From positions 96,001-160,000 of the forward strand of contig CAWAWS010000006.1 of NCBI GenBank assembly GCA_963785725.1: a stretch of 64,000 bases of DNA. The letters are read 5' to 3'. This document shows positions 12,299 through 25,322 of this stretch, piece after piece. The position numbers were made by a program, and so were the translations under genes. Source of the stretch: an uncultured delta proteobacterium (GTDB lineage: Bacteria; Myxococcota_A; Polyangia; Palsa-1104). Numbering within the stretch: position 1 is the stretch's first letter; each line of letters starts with the position of its first letter. The notes beneath the pieces are model-generated. The model saw only the letters and a list, made by a program, of their open reading frames with translations, had not been told where the DNA came from and did no database searches.

Positions 12299-13171
12299 TC
12301 AGGCGCGCAGCTGCACCGACTCGAACTCGGGCAGCGCGCGCCGCAGCTTCGCCTTCAGCCGATCCTCCAGCTGGCGCACGCGCTCGCGCGACAGGTTCAG
12401 GTGACGACCGATCTCGGCCAGCGTATCGGCCTCGTCGCACAAGAGACGGCGCGCCAAGATGTAGCGCTCGCGCTGGGTCAGACCGCGCGCCAGACCGTCG
12501 ATGCGCAGCCGCACCAGCTCGTCGCGCTGCATGCGCTCGAAGCGATCTTCCTGGCCTTCGGCGTGATCGTCGGCGAGCAGCTCGAGCTGTGTCGCGGCGC
12601 CGTCGCGGAAGGCGGCCGCGTCGAGCGACATGTCCTTCGACTCGAGCCGGCCGGTCATGTCGCGGATGCGCTCGGGCGAGGTGTTGAACTTGCGCGCCAG
12701 TCGCTCTTCGACGGCGGTTTCGCTGCCGGCCGGGCCGAGCGCGGCCGTGATCTTGGCGCGCTCGCGCGACATGCGGAAGAACAGCTTCGACTGCAGCGGC
12801 CCCGTGCCGACGCCGACCATCGACCACTGCTTGAGCACGTGCGCCAAGATGAGCGCGCGAATCCAATAGGCCGCGTAGGTCATGAAGCGCAGGTTGCGCG
12901 CCGGCTCGAAGCGCTTGACCGCCTCGCACAGCCCGATGTTGCCCTCTTCGACCAGATCGGCGACGCGAAAGCCGTAACCGCGATACTGCATGGCGATCTT
13001 GACCACGAAGCGCAGGTTGGCGCGCACCAGCCGATGCGCCGCGTCTTGGTCGCCGTGGCGACGCCAGCGACGGGCGAGCCGCAGCTCCTCGTCGCGCTCG
13101 AGCGGCTCGTATTCCGAGATGGCGGAGAGATAGGCGGAAAAGCTGGCGTCCTCCTGGAGCGGCCGGCCCAT
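12299..13171 (-). CDS. rpoH: sigma-32 (RpoH)-family RNA polymerase sigma factor
   Basis: NLRFVVKIA..YRGYG..DLVEEGNIGL..AVKRFEP..RFMTYAAYWIRA; RpoH-box-like QSKLFF; SRERVRQLE. May be one of several paralogues. Confidence 0.8.
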   Translation of the reverse strand: MGRPLQEDASFSAYLSAISEYEPLERDEELRLARRWRRHGDQDAAHRLVRANLRFVVKIAMQYRGYGFRVADLVEEGNIGLCEAVKRFEPARNLRFMTYAAYWIRALILAHVLKQWSMVGVGTGPLQSKLFFRMSRERAKITAALGPAGSETAVEERLARKFNTSPERIRDMTGRLESKDMSLDAAAFRDGAATQLELLADDHAEGQEDRFERMQRDELVRLRIDGLARGLTQRERYILARRLLCDEADTLAEIGRHLNLSRERVRQLEDRLKAKLRRALPEFESVQLRA

Positions 13172-13327
13172 GGCATGTTCTCCTTCCGCCGATTGGATGA
13201 ACCCGCTACCGCGTTGGTTTCAGCCCCGTAGGAAAATTGCGCGCTGGCGGTGATCGTCCGGGTGTCGCAGGTTCTGCGACGGTGGCGCCATGGCTCCTTG
13301 CCAAAAGCGAGCGCGGATCGCAAGCTG

Positions 13328-14872
13328 GTGATCGTGCTCCTCTATATATTGCCGGCGGCGATCTTGTGCGCCTGTGCGTTCGCGCTGGCGCGGCGTCACC
13401 GGCTGACCGAGACGCGCCTCGCCGCCGAGGCGCTGACCGCGGAAGTCCAAGCGATTGCAGCGATTGCGCGCGCCGAAGCGGCGGCGGCGGTGCAGTCGGC
13501 GTCGGCGTCGGCGCGCGAGCAGGCGCTCGAGGCGCGCCGCCTGGCGCACGAGGAGTCGGTCAAGTCCGAGCGTGAGCTGCACGCGCGCGAAGACGAGCTG
13601 ATGCGCAAGCTGTCGACGCTGAACACGAGCGAGCAGCGCATCACCGCCCGGGCCACGGCGCTGCAAGAGCGCGAGCAGGGCCTGAAGCAGCTCGAGCAGA
13701 AGAAGCGCGAGCTCGACGAGCAGCGCAAGCAGGCCGACGAGGCGCGCGGCAAGCTCTTGGAGGAGCAAGCGGGCGAGACGCGGCGCGAGCTGCGCGACCG
13801 CCTCGTCGCCGAGTGGGTGCAAGAGGCCAAGGCGCGCGCGGCCGACGAGCTGCGCCACATCGAGCAGGGCCTGGCCGATGCCGAGCACGGTCGCGAAGCC
13901 AAGCGCGTCATGGGCATCGCGATCCAGCGTTATCACGGGCACTATTTGACCGAGCGGCTCTTGTCGAACCTGCCGCTGTTGCCGGGCTTGGGCGCCAAGC
14001 TCTTGCCCGATATTCCCGCGGTCGAAGAGGTGGCGAACGTCAAGATTACGCTCGCCGACGATCAGACGAGCGTGCGCTTGGAAGGGCAGGACTCGTTCGG
14101 CCGTGAGATCGCCCGTCGCGCCATTCGCAAGCTGGAGAAGAGCGGCTGGAAAGGCGAGGCCAAGGCGTCGGTCGAAAAGATCAAAGAGGAGCTGGAGCGC
14201 GAGGTCGTCGAGCTGGGGCGGCGCGCGTTCAAAGAGCTGGAGATCCCGCGGGCGCATCCCGACATCGTCAAGCTCGTCGGTCGCCTCAACTGGCGGACGT
14301 CGTACACGCAGAATCAGTGGAAGCACGCGGTCGAGGCCGCGTTCTTGTGCGGCATGATGGCCAACGAGCTCGGCCTCGACGTCAAGATCGCGCGGCGCGC
14401 GGCGTTGATGCATGACATCGGCAAGTCGCTGACGCACGCCATCGACGGCTCGCACGCCGTCATCGGCGCCGATTACGCGCGGCGGCTCGGCGAGTCGGAG
14501 CTGGTGGCGAACGCCATCGGCGCGCATCACGCCGACGAGCCGTGCAACTCCGTCTACGCGTCGCTGGTCGCGGCCGCCGACGCGATGTCGGGCGCGCGGC
14601 CGGGCGCGCGCCGCGAGCAGACCGACAATTACGTGCAGAAGCTGGAAGATCTCGAGCGCATCGGCGGCAGCTTCAACGGCGTCGAGCGCGCGTTCGCCGT
14701 GCAAGGCGGCCGTGAAGTGCGCATCTACGTGCAGGAGAACCGCGTCAACGACGAGCGCGCCGTCGAGCTGTCGAGCGAGATCGCGCGCCGCATCTCCGAC
14801 GAAATGACGTTCCCCGGGCAGATCAAGGTGACCGTCATCCGCGAGCTGCGCGCCATCGAAGTCGCCGGCTGA
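13328..14872 (+). CDS. rny: ribonuclease Y
   Basis: N-terminal TM and coiled coil; RTSYTQN..H, LMHDIGK HD motif; AADAMSGARPGAR, AVQGGREVR, FPGQIKVTVIRE. Start codon uncertain. Confidence 0.93.
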   Translation: MIVLLYILPAAILCACAFALARRHRLTETRLAAEALTAEVQAIAAIARAEAAAAVQSASASAREQALEARRLAHEESVKSERELHAREDELMRKLSTLNTSEQRITARATALQEREQGLKQLEQKKRELDEQRKQADEARGKLLEEQAGETRRELRDRLVAEWVQEAKARAADELRHIEQGLADAEHGREAKRVMGIAIQRYHGHYLTERLLSNLPLLPGLGAKLLPDIPAVEEVANVKITLADDQTSVRLEGQDSFGREIARRAIRKLEKSGWKGEAKASVEKIKEELEREVVELGRRAFKELEIPRAHPDIVKLVGRLNWRTSYTQNQWKHAVEAAFLCGMMANELGLDVKIARRAALMHDIGKSLTHAIDGSHAVIGADYARRLGESELVANAIGAHHADEPCNSVYASLVAAADAMSGARPGARREQTDNYVQKLEDLERIGGSFNGVERAFAVQGGREVRIYVQENRVNDERAVELSSEIARRISDEMTFPGQIKVTVIRELRAIEVAG

Positions 14873-15651: not shown

Positions 15652-15677
15652 TCCCGCCCAACCTAGGAACGACGCAC

Positions 15678-16706
15678 ATGAAAGCGATGACGCTCAGGTC
15701 GCATGGCGGCCCCGAAGTCCTGACGCTCGAAGAGCTGCCGACGCCGTCGACGCCGCCCGGTCACGTGCGCGTTCGCGTCGGCGCCGTGGCGATGAACCAC
15801 CTCGACTTGTGGGTGCGGCGCGGGCTGCCGCATCTGAAGCTCGCCTATCCGTTCCTGCTCGGCGCCGACGTCGCCGGCACCGTCGACGAGGTGGGCGAGG
15901 GCGTCGTCGACGTGCGCGCCGGCGACGAGATCGTCGTCAACCCCGGCTGGTCGTGCGGCCGCTGCCGCGAGTGTCTGAGCGGCCGTGACAACCTCTGCCG
16001 CCACTATCAGCTCATGGGCGAAGATCGCTCCGGCGGTTATGCCGAGCTCATCGTCGTCCCGGCGCAGAATGTGGTCGGCAAGCCGAAGTCGCTGTCGATG
16101 GCCGAAGCCGCCGCGCTGCCGACGACGTTCTTGACCGCCTGGCAGATGCTGACGCGCAAGGCGCCGGTGTCGCCCGGCGACGACGTGCTCGTCATGGCCG
16201 CCGGCTCCGGCGTCGGCGTCGCCGCCATCCAGATCGCCAAGCTGCGCGGCGCGCGGGTCATCGCCACCGCGTCGAGCGACGACAAGCTCGCCCGCGCCCG
16301 CGCGCTCGGCGCCGACGAGACCATCAACCACGCGTCGCAAGATCTGGTCGCCGAAGTGAAGCGGCTGACCGGCAAGCGCGGCGTCGACATCGTCTTCGAG
16401 CACGTCGGCGCCGCCGTTTGGGAGAAGGTGATCTTGGCGACCCGGCGCGGCGGTCGCATCGTCACCTGCGGCGCCACCTCCGGCTTCGACGCGCGCACCG
16501 ACCTGCGTCACGTCTTCTTCCGGCAGCTCGAGATCTTGGGCTCGACGATGGGCGCCAAAGGCGATCTGTTCGACATTTTACAGCTCGTCGGCGCCGGCAA
16601 GCTGAAGCCGATCGTCGACCGCACGATGCCCTTGGCCGAGGCGCGAGCGGCCCATCAGCTGCTGGAGAGCCGTGCCGCCTTTGGCAAGATCGTACTCATT
16701 CCATAG
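15678..16706 (+). CDS. zinc-binding alcohol dehydrogenase/quinone reductase family protein
   Basis: MKAMTLRSHGGPEVL; structural Zn CGRCREC..C; AAGSGVG; FGKIVL. Confidence 0.93.
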   Translation: MKAMTLRSHGGPEVLTLEELPTPSTPPGHVRVRVGAVAMNHLDLWVRRGLPHLKLAYPFLLGADVAGTVDEVGEGVVDVRAGDEIVVNPGWSCGRCRECLSGRDNLCRHYQLMGEDRSGGYAELIVVPAQNVVGKPKSLSMAEAAALPTTFLTAWQMLTRKAPVSPGDDVLVMAAGSGVGVAAIQIAKLRGARVIATASSDDKLARARALGADETINHASQDLVAEVKRLTGKRGVDIVFEHVGAAVWEKVILATRRGGRIVTCGATSGFDARTDLRHVFFRQLEILGSTMGAKGDLFDILQLVGAGKLKPIVDRTMPLAEARAAHQLLESRAAFGKIVLIP

Positions 16707-16715
16707 CGTTACCAG

Positions 16716-16797
16716 ACTCTAACCTTCACGTGAGAATGAGGGTATTGACAGCTTTTGCGTGCTACACTAAATAGGACTCGCACGTAAGGGTAAGAGT
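16716..16797 (+). promoter_or_regulatory. promoter region of the merR-isc operon with two inverted 22-bp boxes
   Basis: TTGACA at 16745-16750 (the -10 box is ambiguous). actctaaccttcacgtgagaat (16716-16737) and the reverse complement of 16776-16797 match at 17/22 positions. Confidence 0.6.
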
Positions 16798-17303
16798 TGG
16801 GACCTCACGAACACATAGCCACGTTGGAAAAGCCACTGCGCGTCGGCGAGCTCGCCAAGCGGAGCGGCAAGACCGTGCGTGCGCTGCATTTGTACGAGGA
16901 GCTCGGGCTGCTCCACCCGGTGCATCGCTCGAAGGGCGGCTTTCGTCTCTACTCGCCGTCGGCGGTGCAGCGCGTCGAGTGGATCTCGAAGCTGCAAGAC
17001 GCCGGCTTTTCGCTGCACGACTTGCAGGATCTGCTCAACGGCGTGAGCGAGCAGGGCAACGTGGCGTCGATGGCGATGGAGCGCGTCCGCGGTGTGTTCG
17101 CGGATCGTTTGCGCGAGACGCGCGAGCAGCTCAAGAAGCTGACGCAGCTGGAGCAGGATTTGACGGCGAGCCTGGCCTATCTCGAAGGCTGCCGCTCGTG
17201 TCGCCCCAGCGAGCATCAGATCGAAGAGTGCCCGAGCTGCAATCACAACGGACACGAAGCCGGCGCGCAACCGATTCTCGTCGCCGGCATCCATAGAGGG
17301 TGA
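16797..17303 (+). CDS. MerR-family transcriptional regulator with C-terminal CxxC-x9-CxxC
   Basis: [38 protein letters not shown]; coiled coil; CRSC..CPSC. Stop overlaps the iscS start. TTG start uncertain. Confidence 0.9.
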
Positions 17304-18534
17304 TGATGGCCGTAAAAGTACCGATCTTCATGGACAACCACTCGACGACGCCGGTCGATCCGCGCGTCCTCGACGCCATGCTGCCCTATTTCCGCGAGGA
17401 CTTCGGCAACGCGGCGTCGCGCAACCACGTCTTTGGCTGGAAAGCGGAGAAGGCGGTCGAGCTGGCGCGCGAGCAAGTGGCGGCGCTGATCGGCGCGTCG
17501 GCCAAAGAGATCGTCTGGACCTCGGGCGCGACCGAGTCGATCAACCTGGCGTTCAAGGGCGCGGCCGAGTTCTACGCCGAGAAGGGCAACCACTTCATCA
17601 CCGGGCAGACCGAGCACAAGGCGACGCTCGATACCTGCAAGCGGCTCGAGAAGCAGGGCTGCGAAGTGACCTATCTGCCCGTCGACAAAGAGGGGCTGAT
17701 TTCGCCGGAGCAGGTCGTGGCGGCGATGAAGCCGAACACGGTCATGGTCTCGTTGATGCTGGCGAACAACGAGATCGGCTCGGTGCATCCGATCAGCGCC
17801 ATCGGCGCGGCGATCAAGGCGCACAAGAAGGACGTGCTGTTTCTCGTCGACGCCGTGCAGGGCGCGGGCAAGATTCCGTTCGACGTCAACGAGGCCAAGG
17901 TCGACTTGGCGGCGCTGTCGGGCCACAAGATTTACGGGCCGAAGGGCGTGGGCGCGCTCTACGTTCGCCGCAAGCCGCGCGTGCGCGTCGTCGAGCAGAT
18001 CGACGGCGGCGGTCACGAGCGCGGCATGCGCTCGGGCACGCTGAACGTGCCGGCGATCGTCGGCTTCGGCAAGGCGGCCGAGCTGTGCCGGCTCGAGATG
18101 GCGGAAGAGTCGCGGCGCATGATTGGCCTGCGCGATCGGCTCCTGAGCGTATCTGCAGGCGAACTTGAAGGAGACGTACATCAACGGCTCCTGGGAGCAT
18201 CGTCTGCCCGGCAACTTGAATGTCAGCTTCGCGTATGTCGAGGGCGAAGGCCTGATGATGGCGTTGAAGGACGTGGCCGTGTCGTCGGGCTCGGCCTGCA
18301 CGTCGGCGTCGCTCGAGCCGTCGTATGTGTTGCGCGCGCTCGGCGTCGGCGAGGAGATGGCGCACACGTCGATCCGCTTCGGGCTCGGGCGCTTCAACAC
18401 CGAAGAAGAGGTCGACTACGTCGGTCGTCACGTCGTCGAGGCGGTCACCCGGCTGCGCGAAATGTCGCCGCTGTGGGAGATGGTGCAAGAAGGCATCGAC
18501 CTGAAGAGCATTTCAGTGGGCAGCGGAGCACTAG
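17303..18534 (+). CDS. iscS: cysteine desulfurase IscS (two apparent +1 insertions near 18146 and 18511-18513)
   Basis: [35 protein letters not shown] and, in the second frame, [17 protein letters not shown]. Removing the two extra bases gives ...[16 protein letters not shown]... and ...IDLKSIQWAAEH*. Confidence 0.93.
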
Positions 18535-18543
18535 AGGAAAATC

Positions 18544-18930
18544 ATGGCGTACTCTGAAAAAGTCATCGACCACTACGAGAACCCGCGCAACGTCGGGTCG
18601 CTCGACAAGAACGCCGACGACGTCGGCACCGGCCTCGTCGGCGCGCCCGCGTGCGGCGACGTGATGAAGCTGCAGATCAAGGTCGAGGACGGCATCATCA
18701 CCGATGCCAAGTTCAAGACGTTCGGCTGCGGCTCGGCCATCGCGTCGTCGTCGCTGGTGACCGAGTGGGTCAAGGGCATGACGATCGACAAGGCGATGGA
18801 GCTGAAGAACTCGCAGATCGCCGAGGAGCTCAACCTGCCGCCGGTCAAGATCCACTGCTCGGTGTTGGCCGAGGACGCGATCAAGGCGGCCATCGCCGAC
18901 TACAAGAAGAAGCAGACGAAAGGCGCTTAG
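18544..18930 (+). CDS. iscU: Fe-S scaffold IscU
   Basis: [43 protein letters not shown]. Confidence 0.98.
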
Positions 18931-18932
18931 TC

Positions 18933-19340
18933 ATGGACCACGTCGGGATCGAGCCGGCGGCGCCGGTGGCGCGTAACGAAGGCGACGGAGAGTTCACGGT
19001 GACGCCGGCGGCGGCGGCGCAGATCGTGCGTCAAGTGACCAAGCGCCAGGCCGAGAACAAAGCGACCGAGGCGATCCGCATCGGCTTGCGCGGCGGCGGC
19101 TGTGACGGCTTTTCGTACGTGTTCGAGTGGGCCGACAAGCCGGCGGGCAAGCACGACCACGTGCTCACGTTCTCCGACGGCAACGGCGGTAACGTCCGGC
19201 TCTTCATCGACAAGAAGAGCATGTTGTATTTGAAGGGCACGACGCTCAACTTCGTCAGCGGCTTGATGGGCCACGGGTTCAAGTTCGAGAACCCGAACGT
19301 CAAGGGCGCCTGCGGTTGCGGCGAGAGCGTGCAGTTCTAA
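18933..19340 (+). CDS. iscA: A-type Fe-S carrier IscA
   Basis: GGGCDGFSY and NPNVKGACGCGES motifs; position in the operon. Confidence 0.95.
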   Translation: MDHVGIEPAAPVARNEGDGEFTVTPAAAAQIVRQVTKRQAENKATEAIRIGLRGGGCDGFSYVFEWADKPAGKHDHVLTFSDGNGGNVRLFIDKKSMLYLKGTTLNFVSGLMGHGFKFENPNVKGACGCGESVQF

Positions 19341-19362
19341 GCTCCAGCTTTCCGAGAAGATC

Positions 19363-19911
19363 ATGGCCCGCGATTACTTCGAAGTTTTCGGCCTGCCGCG
19401 CGCGTACCACCTGAGCGCGGCGGAGCTGGAGACGCGCTATCTGGCGCTGCAAATGCAAACGCACCCCGACCGCTTCGCCAAGGCCATGCCGCGCGAGCGG
19501 CTGGAGGCGATCGTGCGCAACACCGAGCTCAACGACGCGTACAAGGTCCTGAAAAACGACATTCGACGCGCCGAATACATATTGAAATTGGAAGGCATCG
19601 ATATCGGCGACGAGAAGCCGCAGGCGACGACGGGCGCCACCAAGCAGCTCGTCGTCGATCCGCGCTTGCTGATGGAAGTGATGGAGCTGCGCGAGGCGTT
19701 GTCGGACGCGCGCAGCGACGGCAAAGACGCGGAGGTCGCGGCCTTGGCGCGCGACGTCGAGGCGCGGCAGAAGACGGCGATGACGATCGTCGACGAAGGT
19801 TACAGCGCGTACGAAGCGGGCGACAAAGGGCGGCTCGATGGCATTGCCCGTGCGCTGGTTTCGTTACGTTATTATCAGCGTTTCATGGACGAAGTAACGG
19901 GTAAGGAGTAG
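19363..19911 (+). CDS. hscB: co-chaperone HscB
   Basis: [14 protein letters not shown]-domain; [15 protein letters not shown]; operon context. Confidence 0.95.
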
Positions 19912-19913
19912 CG

Positions 19914-21824
19914 ATGGCCGAGGCGTTGTACGACATCGCCGAGCCGGGAGCGTCGAAGCCGAAGGAGGCGTGTGCCGGGCGCGCGATCGGCATCGACCTC
20001 GGCACGACGAACTCTCTGGTGGCCGTCGTGCGCGACGCCAATCCGGTCGCGCTCGCCGACGCCGCGGGGCGCAAGCTCCTGCCGTCGGCGGTGCGTTATC
20101 GCGACGGCGAGGCGCCGATCGTGGGCCCGGACGCGCTGCGCGACGCGGCGCAGTTTCCGCGCGATACCATCGTGTCGGCCAAGCGCTTCATGGGTCGCGG
20201 CGCCAAGGACGCGGAGACGACGCGGCGCTTTACGCCCTATCAGTTCGCGAGCGGCGACGGCACCGTCGTGCGCTTCGAGGTCACCGGCGGACGCGCGGTG
20301 ACGCCGATCGAAGTCTCGGCGGAGATCTTGCGAGCGCTGAAGCTGCGCGCCGAGGCCGAGCTCGGTGGCGCGCTCGACGGCGCCGTCATCACCGTGCCGG
20401 CCTACTTCGACGACGCGCAGCGCCAGGCGACGAAGGACGCGGGCCGCATCGCCGGCCTCGAGGTCTTGCGTCTGCTCAACGAGCCGACGGCGGCGGCGCT
20501 GGCGTACGGCCTCGACAAGAAGTCCGAAGGGACGTTCGCCGTCTACGATCTGGGCGGCGGCACGTTCGACATCTCGATTCTGAAGCTCACGGGCGGCGTG
20601 TTCGAGGTGAAGTCGACGGGCGGCGACACGGCGCTCGGCGGCGACGATTTCGATCGCGCGCTGGCCGAAGTCATCCTCGCCAAGACCGGCGCTGACGCGG
20701 CGTTGGATGCGTCGGCGCAGCGCGCGTTGCTCGATCGCGCGCGGGCGGTCAAGCATCGGCTGACGACGGAGACGGCGGTCGCGCTCGACGGCGGCGCCAG
20801 CGTGACGCGCGCCGAGTTCGACGCGGCCATCGAGCCGATTATCGCGCGGACGAAGGCCACCTGTCTGCGCGCGCTCAAGGACGCGGGCGCCGACGCGGCG
20901 CAGCTCGACGGCGTCATACTCGTCGGCGGCGCGACGCGCGTGCCGGCGGTGCGCGCGTTCGTGCGCGAGCTGTTCGGTCGCGAGCCGCTGGCGGACATCG
21001 ATCCCGACGAGGTCGTCGCGCTCGGCGCCGCGGTGCAGGCCGATCTGCTCGCCGGCGCCGGTCCGCGGCAGGACGTGCTGCTCCTCGACGTCATTCCGCT
21101 GTCGCTCGGGCTCGAGCTCATGGGCGGCGTGGTCGAGAAGATCATCCCGCGCAACTCGACGATTCCGACGGGCGCCAAGCAAACGTTTACGACGTACGCC
21201 GATCAGCAGACCGGGTTCGACTTGCATGTCGTGCAGGGCGAGCGCGAGACCGTCGCCGAGTGCCGCTCGCTGGCGCGTTTTCAGCTGACCGGGATTCCGC
21301 CGATGGGCGCCGGCCTGGCGCGGCTCGAGGTCACGTTCATCGTCGACGCCGACGGGATTTTGCGCGTCATGGCCAAAGAGGAGACGACCGGCAAGGAGTC
21401 CTCCGTCGAGGTCAAGCCGACGTACGGGCTGTCGGAGGAGCAGATCGAGAAGATGCTCTTCGACTCCTATGAATATGCCGAGGAGGATTTGAAGGCGCGC
21501 TTGCTGGCCGAGGCGCGCGTCGAGTCCGATCGCATCTTGTCGGCGTTGGAGCGGGCGCTGGCGGTCGACGGGCGGCTGCTCTCACCGGCGGAGCGCGCCG
21601 ACATCGACGCGCAGGTCGCCGGCTTGCGGCAGGCGGCGCAGGGCGAGGATCACCGCGCGATTCGCGAGCGCACCGAGAAGCTCGACTTGGCGACGAAGCC
21701 GTTCGCCGAGCGGCGCATGAACGAGGGAATTCGGCGCGCCATCGGCGGTCAGCAGGTGGGCGCCATCGAGAAGCAGGTCGAGCACGCCAAAGGCACGGCC
21801 GCGCACGAAGGGATACGGGACTGA
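19914..21824 (+). CDS. hscA: Hsp70 chaperone HscA
   Basis: [51 protein letters not shown]; operon context. Confidence 0.95.
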
Positions 21825-22192
21825 TGCCGAAGGTGACGTTCATGCCCGATGGAATCTCGATCGAGGTCGAGCCGGGCACATCGATTTTGAAGGCGGCGAA
21901 GTCGGCGCATGCGCCGGTCGGGTACGCGTGCGGCGGCGTGTGCGCGTGCTCGACGTGCCACGTGTACGTCAAGCAGGGCGGCGACTCGTTGAGCGAGCAG
22001 GAAGAGAGCGAGGAGGACATCCTCGACAAGGCGTTCGACGTGAAGTCGAGCTCGCGGCTCAGCTGTCAGTCGAAGGTGGGCGACGCCGATGTCGTCGTCG
22101 AGATTACGCGCGAGTCGCGGCAGGCTTGGCTCGACGAGCATCCCGAGGAGCGCGCGAAGGCCAAGCAGGCCGGCAGCAGCGTCGCCGGGTAG
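21824..22192 (+). CDS. fdx: ISC-type [2Fe-2S] ferredoxin
   Basis: ACGGVCACSTCHV..SRLSCQ; TGATG coupling to hscA. Confidence 0.96.
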   Translation: MPKVTFMPDGISIEVEPGTSILKAAKSAHAPVGYACGGVCACSTCHVYVKQGGDSLSEQEESEEDILDKAFDVKSSSRLSCQSKVGDADVVVEITRESRQAWLDEHPEERAKAKQAGSSVAG

Positions 22193-22267
22193 CGTCGGCG
22201 GCGATTTCCTGCGCGGCGATTCGCGGCGGTCCCTACGCAGAGCACGCTCCGATGATTGTATTCGACA

Positions 22268-22403
22268 GTCAACTTGCTTGACTAAAAGGTAAACCGAATT
22301 GACTAATCGCTGACGGCGCGCCTGGCCGGGCCATCGCGGCTCGCGACCCCTACGCACCAGTCGCTTGGTCAAGTCGGTTTACTACTTGGTAAGGCTACTT
22401 GAC
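22268..22403. repeat. four GTCAA-N5-TTGAC-type palindromes in two pairs
   Basis: 22268-22282, 22289-22303, 22368-22382 and 22389-22403; 6-nt spacers within each pair. Confidence 0.8.
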
Positions 22404-22616
22404 GAATTCGGCTTGCGCGTCGGACGCTTCGGCGACGGTGTCGATATGCGCGAGCGGCAGTCGCACGCGCCGCGCACCGACGGCGAAGACGGCGAAGTCG
22501 GTCTCGAACGCCGTCAGTCGGCCGCACAGATAGTGGAACGTCGTCGTGCCGATGATGAGCTTGTGTCCCAAGAGGCCGGCCAGGCGCGCGCGCCCGTCGC
22601 CGGTCGGCGCCGTCAT
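22395..22616 (-). CDS. small hypothetical protein (possible Sm-like beta fold)
   Basis: 73-aa ORF translationally coupled (TGATG) to the enoyl-CoA hydratase gene; GC3-rich codons. Confidence 0.6.
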   Translation of the reverse strand: MTAPTGDGRARLAGLLGHKLIIGTTTFHYLCGRLTAFETDFAVFAVGARRVRLPLAHIDTVAEASDAQAEFVK

Positions 22617-23401
22617 CAGCGGCCCTTGAATACCGGCGTCCGCTTGTCGACGTAGGCGGCGATGCCCTCTTTGGCGTCGTCGCTGACGAACAGCTGTTGC
22701 TGCAGCTCGCGCTCGAGCGTCAGGCCGGACGCGAAGTCCATCTCCAAGCCGCTCACGACCGCGCGCTTGATGTATCCGACCGCCTTCGACGCCTTGTTCG
22801 GCGGCACGAAGCGACGCGCGTATTCGGCCACGGCCGCGTCGAATCCGCTGTCGTCGACGATCGCGTTGACGAGCCCGAGCGTCTGCGCCTCCTCGACGGA
22901 CAGGTTGGTGCCGAACGCCATGAGCTCGATTGCCTTGCTGCGCCCGACGAGCCGTGCCAGCCGCTGTGTGCCGCCGGTGCCGGGCAGCACGCCCAGCGCG
23001 ACTTCGGGCAGGCCGATCTTGGCCTTTCCGCGGCGCGCGATCCGCAGATCGCAGGCCATCGCCACTTCCAGGCCGCCGCCGACACAGTGACCGTTGATGG
23101 CCGCGATCACGAGCTTGGGCGTTTGCTCGAGGCGGCTGAGCGTCTCGTTGGCGTGCAGGCAGAAGTTGTATTTGAACGTCGGTGTCGCCGAGGCCAGCAT
23201 GCGAATGTCGGCACCGGCGCAGAAGAACTTGTCGCCCTCGCCGCGCACGACGAGGACGTGCGCGCTCTCGTCCATTCGCGCGCGCAGGATGGCGGCGTCG
23301 AGCTCCTGCATCATTTCGTAGCTGTAGGTGTTGGCCGGCGGATCGCGCAACGTCAGCGTGGCCACGCCGCCGTCGACGGAATAGAGGACTTTTTCGCCCA
23401 T
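22616..23401 (-). CDS. enoyl-CoA hydratase/isomerase family protein
   Basis: FFCAGADI, AINGHCVGGGLEVAMACDLR and GLPEVALGVLPGTGGTQRL motifs. Confidence 0.95.
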   Translation of the reverse strand: MGEKVLYSVDGGVATLTLRDPPANTYSYEMMQELDAAILRARMDESAHVLVVRGEGDKFFCAGADIRMLASATPTFKYNFCLHANETLSRLEQTPKLVIAAINGHCVGGGLEVAMACDLRIARRGKAKIGLPEVALGVLPGTGGTQRLARLVGRSKAIELMAFGTNLSVEEAQTLGLVNAIVDDSGFDAAVAEYARRFVPPNKASKAVGYIKRAVVSGLEMDFASGLTLERELQQQLFVSDDAKEGIAAYVDKRTPVFKGR

Positions 23402-23422: not shown

Positions 23423-23635
23423 TTAGACGGCTTTGGCCAAGCGGATGCGGACCGTCGCCTCGTCACTGCGCGCGAGCTTGGCGCCGGCGCGACCGACGAC
23501 GAGGCCGCCGTCCCAGGTCAAGATCATGTCGCGAGAGCAGAGCTCGCACGGAATGCGGAAGCGCCACGACGCGCTGTCCGACCCGAGCACCTGATGCTCG
23601 CAGCCGCACCACGGACACTGGAAGTCGAGCTTCAT
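23423..23635 (-). CDS. small zinc-ribbon-like protein (70 aa)
   Basis: MKLDFQCPWCGCEH..IPCELC. The longer upstream extension in the ORF track runs through the repeat array and is not accepted. Confidence 0.6.
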   Translation of the reverse strand: MKLDFQCPWCGCEHQVLGSDSASWRFRIPCELCSRDMILTWDGGLVVGRAGAKLARSDEATVRIRLAKAV

Positions 23636-23806
23636 CCTTGGATGGTCGCGGCCTCCGTCCACGATCGCAAATTTTTTGCCGATCCTTTGCCGCACCGCGC
23701 TGTCTCGCGAATGCGACGCTCGCGACGAATCGGCGACGCGCGCGCCGCAATCCTGCGCTATTCGGCGCGAGCTGCCGAGAATCCGCGGGTGAATACGCGG
23801 CAATTC

Positions 23807-23911
23807 GTCAGGCAAGCTGACTATGTCGTCAAGCAAGTTGACGAATTCGAGTTGGTCAACTTGCTTGATTAAATAGTCAATCAGGTTGACGAAATGGTCA
23901 GGCAGGTTGAC
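23807..23911. repeat. five GTCA(A/G)-N5-(T/C)TGA(C/T) palindromes, mostly on a 21-bp period
   Basis: 23807-23821, 23828-23842, 23855-23869, 23876-23890 and 23897-23911. Confidence 0.85.
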
Positions 23912-24036
23912 GAAGTGCAATGACTCGAAGGTCACGACAGGCGTCGTTGGCCTGGTGAAGCTGCTGGGTGAGTGCGGCGTCGATGGGGCGATTCATCTGT
24001 CGCCGCGAAGAATGGGTCGGGCGATTCGTCGGGTCG

Positions 24037-24477
24037 TCAGGGCGCGGGCGGCTCCGGCTTCGGCGCCGACAGTCGGACTGCCGCGACGGCCGCGCCGAGC
24101 AGCGCAATGTCGCGCAAGACGGTCCAGGCGGTGACCGGTCCCGAGCCGCCGCCGAAGCAGCCGCAGTCGATGTTGATGCCTCGGGCGACCACTTGCCCAA
24201 CGGCCGCCGTGAACACGGCGAGCATGCCGGCCATCGCCAGCGCCGCCGCCCGTCGCCACTGCACCGGTGCCGCCACCAACGCCACGCCGAGCGCGATCTC
24301 GATCGCCGGCAGCGTCGCCGCCAAATACGGCGCCAGCTCGGGCAAAAAGCGATAGTTCACGATCTCGGTCGCGAACGCGGTCGGCTGCGCCAGCTTGAGC
24401 ACGCCGGCGAGCACGAACAGCCCGCCGAGGCCGAGCCGCAGCGACCATCCGAGCGCCAGTCGCAGCGGCGCGCTCAA
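24037..24477 (-). CDS. DoxX/MauE-family membrane protein
   Basis: LRLGLGGLFVLAGVLKL..P..F, EIALG, GINIDCGCFG and RD motifs. TTG start overlaps the rhodanese stop. Confidence 0.88.
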   Translation of the reverse strand: MSAPLRLALGWSLRLGLGGLFVLAGVLKLAQPTAFATEIVNYRFLPELAPYLAATLPAIEIALGVALVAAPVQWRRAAALAMAGMLAVFTAAVGQVVARGINIDCGCFGGGSGPVTAWTVLRDIALLGAAVAAVRLSAPKPEPPAP

Positions 24478-25322
24478 CGGACGCCGCCGCCCGGCGCGGC
24501 AGTCGCGCCACTGCCGTTCTGCGCGCCGCTGCCCGGCGCGGCAGTTGCGCCATTGCCGTTCTGCGCGCCGCCGCTCGGCGCGGCAGTCGCGCCAGCCTGC
24601 GCGCCGCCGCTCGGCGCGGCAGTCGCGCCAGTCTGCGCGCCGCCGCTCGGCGCGGCAGTCGCGCCAGCCTGCGCGCCGCCGCTCGGCGCGGCAGTCGCGC
24701 CAGTCTGCGCGCCGCCGCTCGGCGCGGCAGTCGCGCCACTCTGCGCGCCGACTGCAGGCGCGACCGTCGCGCCGCCGCTCTGCCCGACGCCGCTCTGCGC
24801 AGCGGCGGCGCCCGCCGCGCCCGTCTTGCACTCGTCACACGGCCCCGACGCGCACGCCAATCCCGCGCTCGACCACGCCCCGAACCCACCCGCCAACACC
24901 TGCACGCGCGCGTTCGGATGTCGTCGCCGCAAGCTGTCCGCCACCGGCCGCGCGTCCTCGCTCGTCGCCCCATACACGACGATGCGCTGCGCCCGCTCGA
25001 AATGCGCCAACGCCTCGCCGGCCGCGCCCCCGGCGTCACACGGCAAATGCACCGCGCCCGCGACGTGACCCTCGGCAAACGCGCTCGCCGCTCGCGCATC
25101 GGCGACGACCACCCCCGGCTGCCCGCACAACCCAGCCGCGTCCGCCGGCGCCAAATCCTCGGCGCCCGCCGCGGCCTTGCCGTCATGCGGCCCCGTGCAC
25201 TCCGTCGGCGGCGCGAACGACGCCAGCGCCACGCCGCCCGGTCGCACGGCGTTCGTCACCAACCCCACCGCCGCCGCGCCGACCACCAGCGTCAGCGCGC
25301 GCACCCAAATGGCCGACGTCAT
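24474..25322 (-). CDS. membrane-anchored rhodanese-like protein with repetitive C-terminal tail
   Basis: N-terminal TM..N..RP.G; DAR...FAEGHVAGAVHLP; VLAGGFGAW. IVVYG has Gly at the usual active-site Cys position. Confidence 0.8.
   Translation of the reverse strand: MTSAIWVRALTLVVGAAAVGLVTNAVRPGGVALASFAPPTECTGPHDGKAAAGAEDLAPADAAGLCGQPGVVVADARAASAFAEGHVAGAVHLPCDAGGAAGEALAHFERAQRIVVYGATSEDARPVADSLRRRHPNARVQVLAGGFGAWSSAGLACASGPCDECKTGAAGAAAAQSGVGQSGGATVAPAVGAQSGATAAPSGGAQTGATAAPSGGAQAGATAAPSGGAQTGATAAPSGGAQAGATAAPSGGAQNGNGATAAPGSGAQNGSGATAAPGGGVR
24484..24780 (-). repeat. 36/42-bp coding tandem repeat (GATAAPSGGAQx)
   Basis: About seven units of gcgccgccgctcggcgcggcagtcgcgcca(g)..., alternating A/T variants. 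Confidence 0.9.

Follow-up and report, generated by a model that had tools for sequence, protein, structure and literature searches.

Which protein controls Fe-S cluster assembly at a locus where the isc operon is headed by a MerR-family gene? The question is raised by a window of 64,000 nucleotides from the genome of a soil myxobacterium (8.9 Mb, 88% complete). In the reviews consulted, the only regulators dedicated to cluster assembly are Rrf2 proteins (IscR, RisR) and SufR, and for many lineages regulation is described as unknown. Our search of the literature for a four-Cys MerR protein of Fe-S assembly found no description.

The isc operon and its first gene

The operon has the order merR-iscSUA-hscBA-fdx, with merR as the first gene (Table 1). 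This order agrees with an earlier note on this DNA, which had placed a MerR gene at the head of the operon, in the usual slot of IscR. The overlap of merR and iscS reported there was found as described, since the merR stop codon TGA (17301-17303) runs into the iscS ATG at 17303 as TGATG. The note had also seen neither iscX nor an Rrf2 gene in the window; indeed, no iscX was found anywhere in the 88% complete genome and no Rrf2 gene on the contig of the window. RNA-library contigs span merR and the isc genes of relatives, which is not a measure of transcription level or co-transcription.

In the present assembly the frame of iscS breaks near 18145-18148, and a second extra base lies near 18516. 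Contigs of close strains carry neither extra base (first site: one contig of run X1 and two shallow contigs of X7; second site: contigs of three runs), iscS is intact in the closest relatives checked, and sufB, which could have served as a back-up, was not found. For these reasons a true pseudogene is disfavoured, and the frameshift is probably an assembly error.

Table 1. Genes and predicted regulatory elements of the isc locus (positions in the window)
Feature	Position	Strand	Basis
Predicted operator 1, 22-bp imperfect palindrome directly 5' of the -35 hexamer	16716..16737		PWM 21.5, second-best in the genome
Putative sigma-70 promoter	16745..16773	+	TTGACA 16745-16750, 17 bp, weak -10 TAAATA 16768-16773
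Predicted operator 2, 22-bp palindrome	16776..16797		PWM 27.0, best site in the genome
merR, MerR-family regulator, 168 aa	16797(TTG)..17303	+	ORF list, Pfam, profile search, fold
iscS, cysteine desulfurase, two frames in the present assembly	17303..18557	+	profile matches
iscU, scaffold	18544..18930	+	TIGR01999 227.9 bits, over cut-off
iscA, A-type carrier	18933..19340	+	PF01521, TIGR00049
hscB, co-chaperone	19363..19911	+	PF07743; TIGR00714 over cut-off
hscA, chaperone	19914..21824	+	TIGR01991 over cut-off
fdx, ISC-type [2Fe-2S] ferredoxin	21824..22192	+	PF00111; TIGR02007 114.8 bits, below cut-off 132.1

Family, fold and cysteine tail of the regulator

Pfam assigned the regulator to MerR families only, with PF13411 (MerR_1), PF00376 (MerR) and PF09278 (MerR-DNA-bind) all over cut-off, and a genome-wide search with the Rrf2 profile PF02082 gave no match to the merR gene. 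The predicted model (mean pLDDT 88.8) shows an N-terminal winged helix-turn-helix followed by a long dimerisation helix (residues 80-122). Both fold searches were topped by MerR structures; in one of them SoxR was the top row (Z 12.7, rmsd 5.7, 113 aligned), with TnrA and TipA tied within 1.

The 168-aa translation ends in the four-Cys tail that had been noticed earlier (CRSC-x9-CPSC with nearby His), namely C132-x2-C135-x9-C145-x2-C148, and histidines are found at H140, H150, H153 and H166. The pLDDT of the tail was 51-63 in a first fold made from a 36-row alignment and 77-80 in a deeper one. Conservation of the four Cys had been proposed as a check, and all four are kept in 120 of 120 best homologues and in 80 of 80 GTDB loci. 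Among relatives, the two Cys pairs are separated by a loop of 6 to 20 residues that also tolerates longer inserts, and in 80 of 119 the stretch from helix-turn-helix to tail is free of Cys.

SoxR (PDB 2zhg/2zhh), the [2Fe-2S] member of the family, has the same fold and likewise lacks a Cys where the dimerisation helix begins. However, its motif CIGCGCLSxxC (CX2CXCX5C; PMC11672702, available excerpt) differs from the CX2C-X7-9-CX2C found here, as the earlier note had stated. Identity to SoxR is about 25%, TIGR01950 gave 52.5 bits against a cut-off of 116.9, and here the predicted targets are Fe-S assembly genes and the operator lies mostly outside the spacer. CueR, ZntR, CadR/PbrR and MerR also share the fold, and Cys at the ends of their metal-binding loop have a counterpart in the tail (C145 aligns with CueR C120 and ZntR C124). 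Nevertheless, their profiles have cut-offs of 143-168 bits and gave only 48-64, the regulator lacks the Cys that divalent-metal sensors carry at the helix start, the tail holds two extra Cys, and no metal-efflux gene was seen beside the regulator in the annotated neighbourhoods. A classical Cu/Zn/Cd/Hg sensor was rejected because of these family cut-offs, the missing Cys and the gene neighbours.

Judged from its sequence, the regulator belongs to a conserved clade. We fetched 80 GTDB loci, 77 of them with downstream DNA, and checked the linkage to isc or suf genes expected of homologues: iscS directly follows the regulator in 72 loci, and in the other five (Eisenbacteria) sufA, an A-type carrier gene, comes first. 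The order sufA-sufCBD-sufS-sufU was seen in L053, the sole Eisenbacteria locus of five annotated in full. Among the 79 gene-bearing Myxococcota genomes, iscU lies within 2.5 kb of the regulator in 68; in 9 further genomes the regulator heads iscS without iscU or a hybrid iscS-iscA-sufBCD operon, and 2 have a paralogue only. The gene is present in 49 of 81 Eisenbacteria genomes, with sufA plus sufC behind it in 25 of 27 loci (the remaining 2 end within 120 bp). We claim two phyla only, because the 'Acidobacteriota' record L085 shares its GTDB phylum with Eisenbacteria.

The four-Cys tail is not specific to Fe-S assembly, since two other clades share it: a sister clade whose neighbours are queG and an ECF sigma factor, and a distant one that has Lon-domain and GTP cyclohydrolase genes next to it. 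Searching the ESM Atlas with the tail returned only unnamed clusters and one MerR-linked lead, and a plasmid search only distant MerR proteins, all below 60% identity.

Predicted operators at isc and in trans

The two predicted operators were scored with a PWM learned on 79 other loci. Operator 2, the sole pattern match in the genome, lies 3' of the -10, covers the likely +1 and the ribosome-binding site, and ends on the TTG start. In terms of the predicted promoter elements, the operators sit at -35 and +25 relative to the end of TTGACA; neither lies inside a 19-20-bp -35/-10 spacer, the place of the operator in canonical MerR activators. The putative promoter was not called by a consensus promoter scanner, and an extended -10 (TG-n-TACACT near 16760-16768) is an alternative; TTGAC is found 5' of the box in most relatives.

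Upstream of the regulator, the palindrome was detected in 79 of 80 clade promoters, and 20 shuffles gave 0 of 80 every time; the count was obtained with a PWM trained on the same loci and among kin that are not independent. At the level of genomes, the pattern was present in 51 of 65 clade-positive genomes versus none of 15 clade-negative ones. Boxes also occur in trans. Nine of 17 trans sites of relatives precede Fe-S genes (five suf operons, three erpA genes and one detached hscA), and the other eight precede genes without a role in Fe-S assembly. Of 11 unlinked suf operons of clade-positive genomes, 7 scored above 22 by PWM, whereas none of 30 control suf loci exceeded 8. In the genome of the window, the other PWM matches above 13 were two operator overlaps, two sites within or between unrelated genes and one upstream of a different MerR gene, and a wider regulon there was rejected on these matches. 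No box precedes the second A-type carrier gene, which lies immediately beyond the window.

Could MerR merely regulate itself, or be a passenger, while an Rrf2 protein controls isc in trans? Rrf2 control in trans is found in Myxococcus xanthus, whose isc operon contains no regulator gene of its own and is repressed by RisR from elsewhere (PMC9973013, in the part available). The present genome is only 88% complete and contains three Rrf2 genes over cut-off, on C16 and C26. However, these proteins, with 1, 5 and 2 Cys, do not reach the IscR or SUF-regulator cut-offs, and we take the five-Cys protein to be RsrR-like. The Rrf2 box GAC-N7-GTC is missing from the isc promoter of the window. In 18 isc promoters without MerR (9 with an Rrf2 gene in the slot, 9 without a regulator gene there), the best operator score was below 0 throughout, and the MerR box and Rrf2 control did not co-occur among the promoters examined. 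Furthermore, boxes stand in trans before suf, erpA and hscA, with 4 genomes among these cases whose merR-iscS promoter has no box, which argues against mere autoregulation. Control by an Rrf2 protein from elsewhere had been raised earlier as an objection; neither a box nor a fitting Rrf2 protein of the IscR or RisR type was found in this 88% complete genome, and we regard this alternative as very improbable.

The regulator heads an isc or suf operon, and the predicted palindrome lies there and on other Fe-S genes, as in dedicated Fe-S regulators. Since the palindrome occurs on its own and on trans Fe-S promoters and was not found in the 15 clade-negative genomes or the 18 isc promoters without MerR, the four-Cys MerR is very likely a dedicated regulator of Fe-S biogenesis. 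The idea of a MerR controlling cluster biogenesis, put forward from the window, is thereby supported by Cys conservation, isc/suf linkage and the lack of signs of Rrf2 control.

Proposed mode of action and its relation to known regulators

The MerR dimer very likely binds the 22-bp palindrome. Binding would probably repress transcription in the genome of the window, because the sites lie outside the -35/-10 spacer, one covering the +1 and the ribosome-binding site and the other abutting the -35. By analogy with holo-IscR, RisR and SufR, the four Cys may well hold a cluster supplied by the ISC machinery, whose loss or oxidation would lift repression. A CX2CX7CX2C motif binds [2Fe-2S] in anamorsin (PMC8251831, excerpt). 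C132 and C145 align with the SoxR cluster ligands C119 and C130. Taken together, the reading of a dedicated isc feedback repressor that acts on two palindromes and probably senses Fe-S status through a tail cluster appears somewhat better than evenly supported. Counted against it are the Eisenbacteria box inside the spacer, the 8 of 17 trans sites outside Fe-S assembly and the weak -10 of the window.

The variable loop between the Cys pairs also suits a mononuclear Zn or Fe site. With the same regulator and operator, the four Cys could bind one Zn(II) or Fe(II) or form a thiol/disulfide switch, in which case the protein would respond to free iron or to oxidative, thiol or metal (Cu/Zn) stress and not to cluster occupancy. 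The two CxxC knuckles, a His within 8 residues past the fourth Cys in 84 of 119 relatives and the same tail in clades without a link to Fe-S assembly fit such a site. The MerR family is known to include sensors of Fe, Zn, Cu and thiol stress (PMC11672702, excerpt), and Zn and Fe-S sites are indistinguishable by motif (PMC11138216, in the part available). Nevertheless, this explanation is rather unlikely: the annotated neighbourhoods show no adjoining metal-efflux gene, the helix-start Cys of divalent-ion sensors is missing, and the known dedicated isc/suf regulators IscR, RisR and SufR all carry clusters, according to the available parts of PMC8593673 and PMC9973013.

MerR proteins usually keep their operator affinity with or without ligand and activate by DNA twisting (PMC11672702, excerpt), and this ligand-independent affinity fits poorly with a release of repression. 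A SoxR-like activator would sit on the operator constantly, and oxidation of its cluster would twist the promoter and switch isc or suf on. SoxR as the top structural row (with TnrA and TipA tied within 1) agrees with this, and 24 of 108 classed boxes overlap the -35/-10 region. In most Eisenbacteria loci the box lies inside an 18-bp spacer between a T[AG]GACY-type -35 and a TA[CT/A]GAT-type -10, an activator-like geometry. On the contrary, the boxes of the window and of most Polyangia lie downstream of the -10 (58 of 108) or upstream of the -35 (26 of 108), with spacers of 16-18 bp, and from these positions they would not twist the spacer. We consider SoxR-like activation quite improbable.

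Returning to the feedback repressor, the regulator likely does the job of IscR. Like the Rrf2 protein IscR of E. coli ([2Fe-2S]), it is the first gene of iscSUA-hscBA-fdx with a palindromic operator over its own promoter, and the IscR regulon extends to erpA and suf (PMC8593673, excerpt), as does that of the MerR clade by predicted sites. IscR differs in fold (Rrf2, not MerR), in operator and in its Cys3-His ligands, compared to four Cys in two CxxC pairs. RisR, of the Rrf2 IS6 subgroup, likewise serves isc and suf in a myxococcotal species through one regulator and one palindrome; however, fold and operator are unrelated, and RisR is encoded at the head of suf and reaches isc in trans (PMC9973013, in the part available). 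The RisR and MerR solutions were never found together in the isc promoters examined. SufR of cyanobacteria and actinobacteria (DeoR-like, [4Fe-4S]) is also a four-Cys protein dedicated to an Fe-S assembly operon that it autorepresses through a palindromic site, but it has another DNA-binding fold, operator and Cys spacing (C-X12-C-X13-C-X14-C; PMC8593673, excerpt).

There is thus a fair case, if a narrow one, that this MerR-fold protein represents a third structural class of dedicated sensor for Fe-S homeostasis, next to Rrf2 and SufR. It would carry an Fe-S cluster on the two CxxC pairs of its tail and, in Myxococcota and Eisenbacteria, govern a small regulon of isc, suf, erpA and hscA. In one of these phyla it would repress from sites beyond the spacer, and in the other it might activate by twisting DNA. 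Since a precise predicted operator and trans targets are in hand, the candidate is directly testable. If true, SoxR would be joined by a second MerR of the Fe-S type, one whose ligand set differs, and unrelated folds would have been convergently recruited to the same feedback task within one phylum. The clade provides a candidate Fe-S regulator for a large part of the Myxococcota and for over half of the sampled Eisenbacteria.

The merR gene, its isc operon and the host genome

The earlier note had placed a MerR gene with a four-Cys tail at the head of the isc operon, overlapping the start of iscS. Both points hold, since the iscS ATG shares TGATG with the merR stop codon and the tail reads C132-x2-C135-x9-C145-x2-C148, with four His residues nearby. 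Confirmed as well was its observation that the window holds neither an Rrf2 gene nor iscX; three Rrf2 genes over cut-off lie on other contigs of the genome (8.9 Mb, 88% complete), in which neither iscX nor sufB was found. An Rrf2 protein of this genome (L002:1429-1914, contig C26), with E8, H12, C90 and C110 and encoded beside an NAD(P)-binding-like gene, is presumably RsrR-like by its residue pattern, not by cut-off. The label CymR-like is likewise our assumption, with no cut-off behind it. In assembly GCA_963785725.1 the window iscS is spread across two frames. Extra bases near 18145-18148 and 18516, which disrupt the gene and extend its C-terminus, are absent from close-strain contigs and are therefore probably assembly errors; consequently, further frameshifts of this genome may be errors too.

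Features around the isc operon of the window
Position	Strand	Feature	Remark
12299-13171	-	sigma-70-family sigma factor	which we take to be RpoH-like
13250-14872	+	RNase Y	
about 15675-16706		Zn-dependent alcohol dehydrogenase/quinone-reductase-like gene	next to merR, on its upstream side; same placement in roughly one related locus in four
22200-22420; 23423-23935		AT-richer stretches	repeated TTGAC-like words
22616-23401		presumably enoyl-CoA hydratase-like	not by cut-off; no match in Pfam/NCBIfam searches
24037-25322	-	MauE/DoxX-like and rhodanese-domain genes	low-complexity Ala/Pro-rich repeats

A conserved MerR subfamily linked to isc and suf genes

The four Cys singled out by the earlier note proved conserved among homologues. 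A word-indexed search gave 1535 relatives, the closest named ones being Polyangia/Myxococcota MAGs, and CxxC-x8/9-CxxC is kept in all of the best 120 of these; CxxC-x7-9-CxxC is present in all 80 GTDB loci kept (80 of 156 confirmed). Among the best 150 cluster representatives, the pattern C-x2/3-C-x6-20-C-x2/3-C is present in 119, another 26 are fragments that align only up to a point short of the tail, and five lack the pattern, three apparently through long inserts between the pairs and two through loss of one pair. The window protein reaches none of the curated MerR subfamily cut-offs. Its predicted structure, computed from a 149-row alignment with rows picked for having the tail, has a mean pLDDT of 88.8 (77-80 in the tail), and its best structural matches are MerR proteins (SoxR with Z 12.7, TnrA and TipA within 1). 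When aligned with E. coli proteins, C132 falls on SoxR C119, where the dimerisation helix ends, and C145 on SoxR C130, CueR C120 and ZntR C124. Divalent-metal sensors have a Cys at the start of this helix, which the window protein lacks. The protein is MerR by fold, and belongs neither to SoxR or the metal-sensor subfamilies nor to Rrf2.

Linkage to isc/suf was also borne out: in the 80 GTDB loci iscS directly follows merR in 72, five from Eisenbacteria have an A-type carrier (sufA-type) first, and three end too soon. The phylum sample comprised 301 genomes, with profile matches in 82 and iscU over cut-off in 92. We counted 79 genomes (78 with E < 1e-39 and the distant G004; three with only distant matches were dropped), of which 68 have iscU at most 2.5 kb downstream of merR, seven have merR-iscS-iscA-hscB(-hscA-like) and no iscU, two have the paralogue only, and one each has merR-iscS and merR-iscS-iscA-sufBCD. 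In Eisenbacteria the gene occurs in 49/81 and 98/172 genomes of two overlapping samples, followed by sufA and sufC in 25 of 27 loci examined; the order behind merR at L053 is sufA-sufC-sufB-sufD-sufS-sufU. A hybrid operon, merR-iscS-iscA-sufB-sufC-sufD-sufS-sufU-like, was seen in genome G244 (L155, contig C19). Seven remnants without iscU (L116, L118, L122, L128, L201, L203, L204) read merR-iscS-iscA-hscB, in most cases plus an hscA-like gene of reduced length, and their genomes hold a separate suf operon, possibly an ISC-to-SUF hand-over under one regulator.

On a 43-row tree with long-branched outgroups, the isc/suf-linked proteins form one group (94/95), and placed as its sister is a clade of paralogues whose genes stand ahead of an ECF sigma factor and queG. 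A second four-Cys group, more remote, adjoins Lon-domain, GTP cyclohydrolase or queuosine-salvage genes (L131-L135, L154); L154 heads iscS-iscU-fdx and lacks the predicted operator. Because both clades adjoin other genes, the tail, judged by gene neighborhood, is not exclusive to Fe-S loci. The subfamily itself is real and conserved. It is apparently undescribed, as the earlier note had suggested: excerpts of PMC8593673 name IscR and SufR as dedicated Fe-S regulators and MerR not once, the main text of PMC9973013 does not mention MerR, and its four supplementary files hold no match for MerR or three Polyangia genus names. A literature search at listing and abstract level, which took in neither regulon databases nor the supplements of preprints nor journals behind a subscription, returned no paper on a MerR heading isc or suf.

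A predicted operator at isc and suf promoters

The merR upstream regions share a 22-bp palindrome (box) with the consensus ACCCTTACGT-NN-ACGTAAGGGT. A matrix trained on 79 loci, with the window left out and one locus dropped as having no upstream DNA, gave its top two scores in the whole window genome at 16776 (27.0) and 16716 (21.5). Scores of at least 15 were obtained in 79/80 promoters and in none in each of 20 shuffles (training and test loci overlap). Two checks were independent of that training, namely the promoters of MerR-less isc operons described below and a degenerate pattern, which occurred in 51 of 65 clade-positive versus 0 of 15 negative genomes (80 hand-chosen from the sample); box counts include kin, are not independent, and are patterns rather than statistical tests. 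Among 24 loci that have iscU but no linked MerR gene, sequence was examined for 18, and all 18 promoters score below 0. An Rrf2 gene occupies the regulator slot in nine of them, and a regulator gene is absent from it in the other nine (L136-L141, L148, L151, L152). Most of these nine show, on visual inspection, a GAC-N7-GTC core resembling the RisR site, a motif taken from excerpts of PMC9973013. In family f17, with regulator-less isc and a RisR-like palindrome, sufB is absent from 6/6 genomes; therefore, its Rrf2 gene must lie elsewhere.

Box-pattern sites were also found away from merR. The 17 sites precede unlinked suf operons (5), erpA (3), a detached hscA (1), ECF sigma genes (4), an RpoH-like sigma gene (1), a Crp-family gene (1) and two others. 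Seven of 11 unlinked suf operons of clade-positive genomes score above 22 and two score 12.5 and 15.8; the two without a box are Rrf2-headed and from a paralogue-only genome, respectively. None of 30 control suf loci exceeded 8. Four genomes have the box before suf and none at the merR-iscS promoter. As side observations, the RpoH-like sigma gene of G244 (L209) has a box, and L207 and L208 have one at an ECF gene with no adjacent MerR gene seen. Paralogous four-Cys MerR genes of family f37 (L117, L119, L123, L127, L129, L202, L205) have a variant palindrome and precede an ECF sigma factor, in most with queG also behind. Outside the window, a related palindrome scoring 15.7 (G000:C39:697003) precedes the gene of a MerR protein devoid of Cys and is probably that protein's own operator.

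Promoter geometry and proposed mode of action

Box positions were classed automatically against the closest TTGAC, a few probably being tied to the wrong hexamer: 58 boxes fall on the downstream side of the -10 position, 26 precede the -35, and 24 overlap with the spacer. The putative promoter of the window, TTGACA-17-TAAATA, has a box on either side, and the second box spans the likely +1 and ribosome-binding site, hence the predicted arrangement is that of a repressor. Canonical MerR activators, in contrast, have their site within a 19-20-bp spacer (PMC11672702, excerpts). At most Eisenbacteria loci the box lies between plausible -35 and -10 hexamers (18 bp in our own register), a placement that reads as activator-like.

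That MerR regulates its isc operon is strongly supported, and we consider it quite likely that it does so as a repressor. As long as a cluster made by ISC sits on the Cys tail, a dimer would occupy both boxes and keep its own operon down; loss or oxidation of that cluster, under iron shortage or oxidative stress, would lift repression. We lean slightly toward an Fe-S cofactor held by the four Cys. A precedent for this reading is human anamorsin, which binds [2Fe-2S] through CX2CX7CX2C, a motif also described with [4Fe-4S] in yeast Dre2 (PMC8251831, excerpts). Against the mechanism stand the likeness of Zn and Fe-S motifs (PMC11138216, excerpts), the tail in non-Fe-S relatives, and the excerpted statement that MerR proteins seldom leave DNA upon ligand change (PMC11672702). 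MerR probably works like IscR/RisR, and, judging by gene context and predicted operators, control of Fe-S cluster biogenesis is very likely the role of its clade in both Myxococcota and Eisenbacteria.
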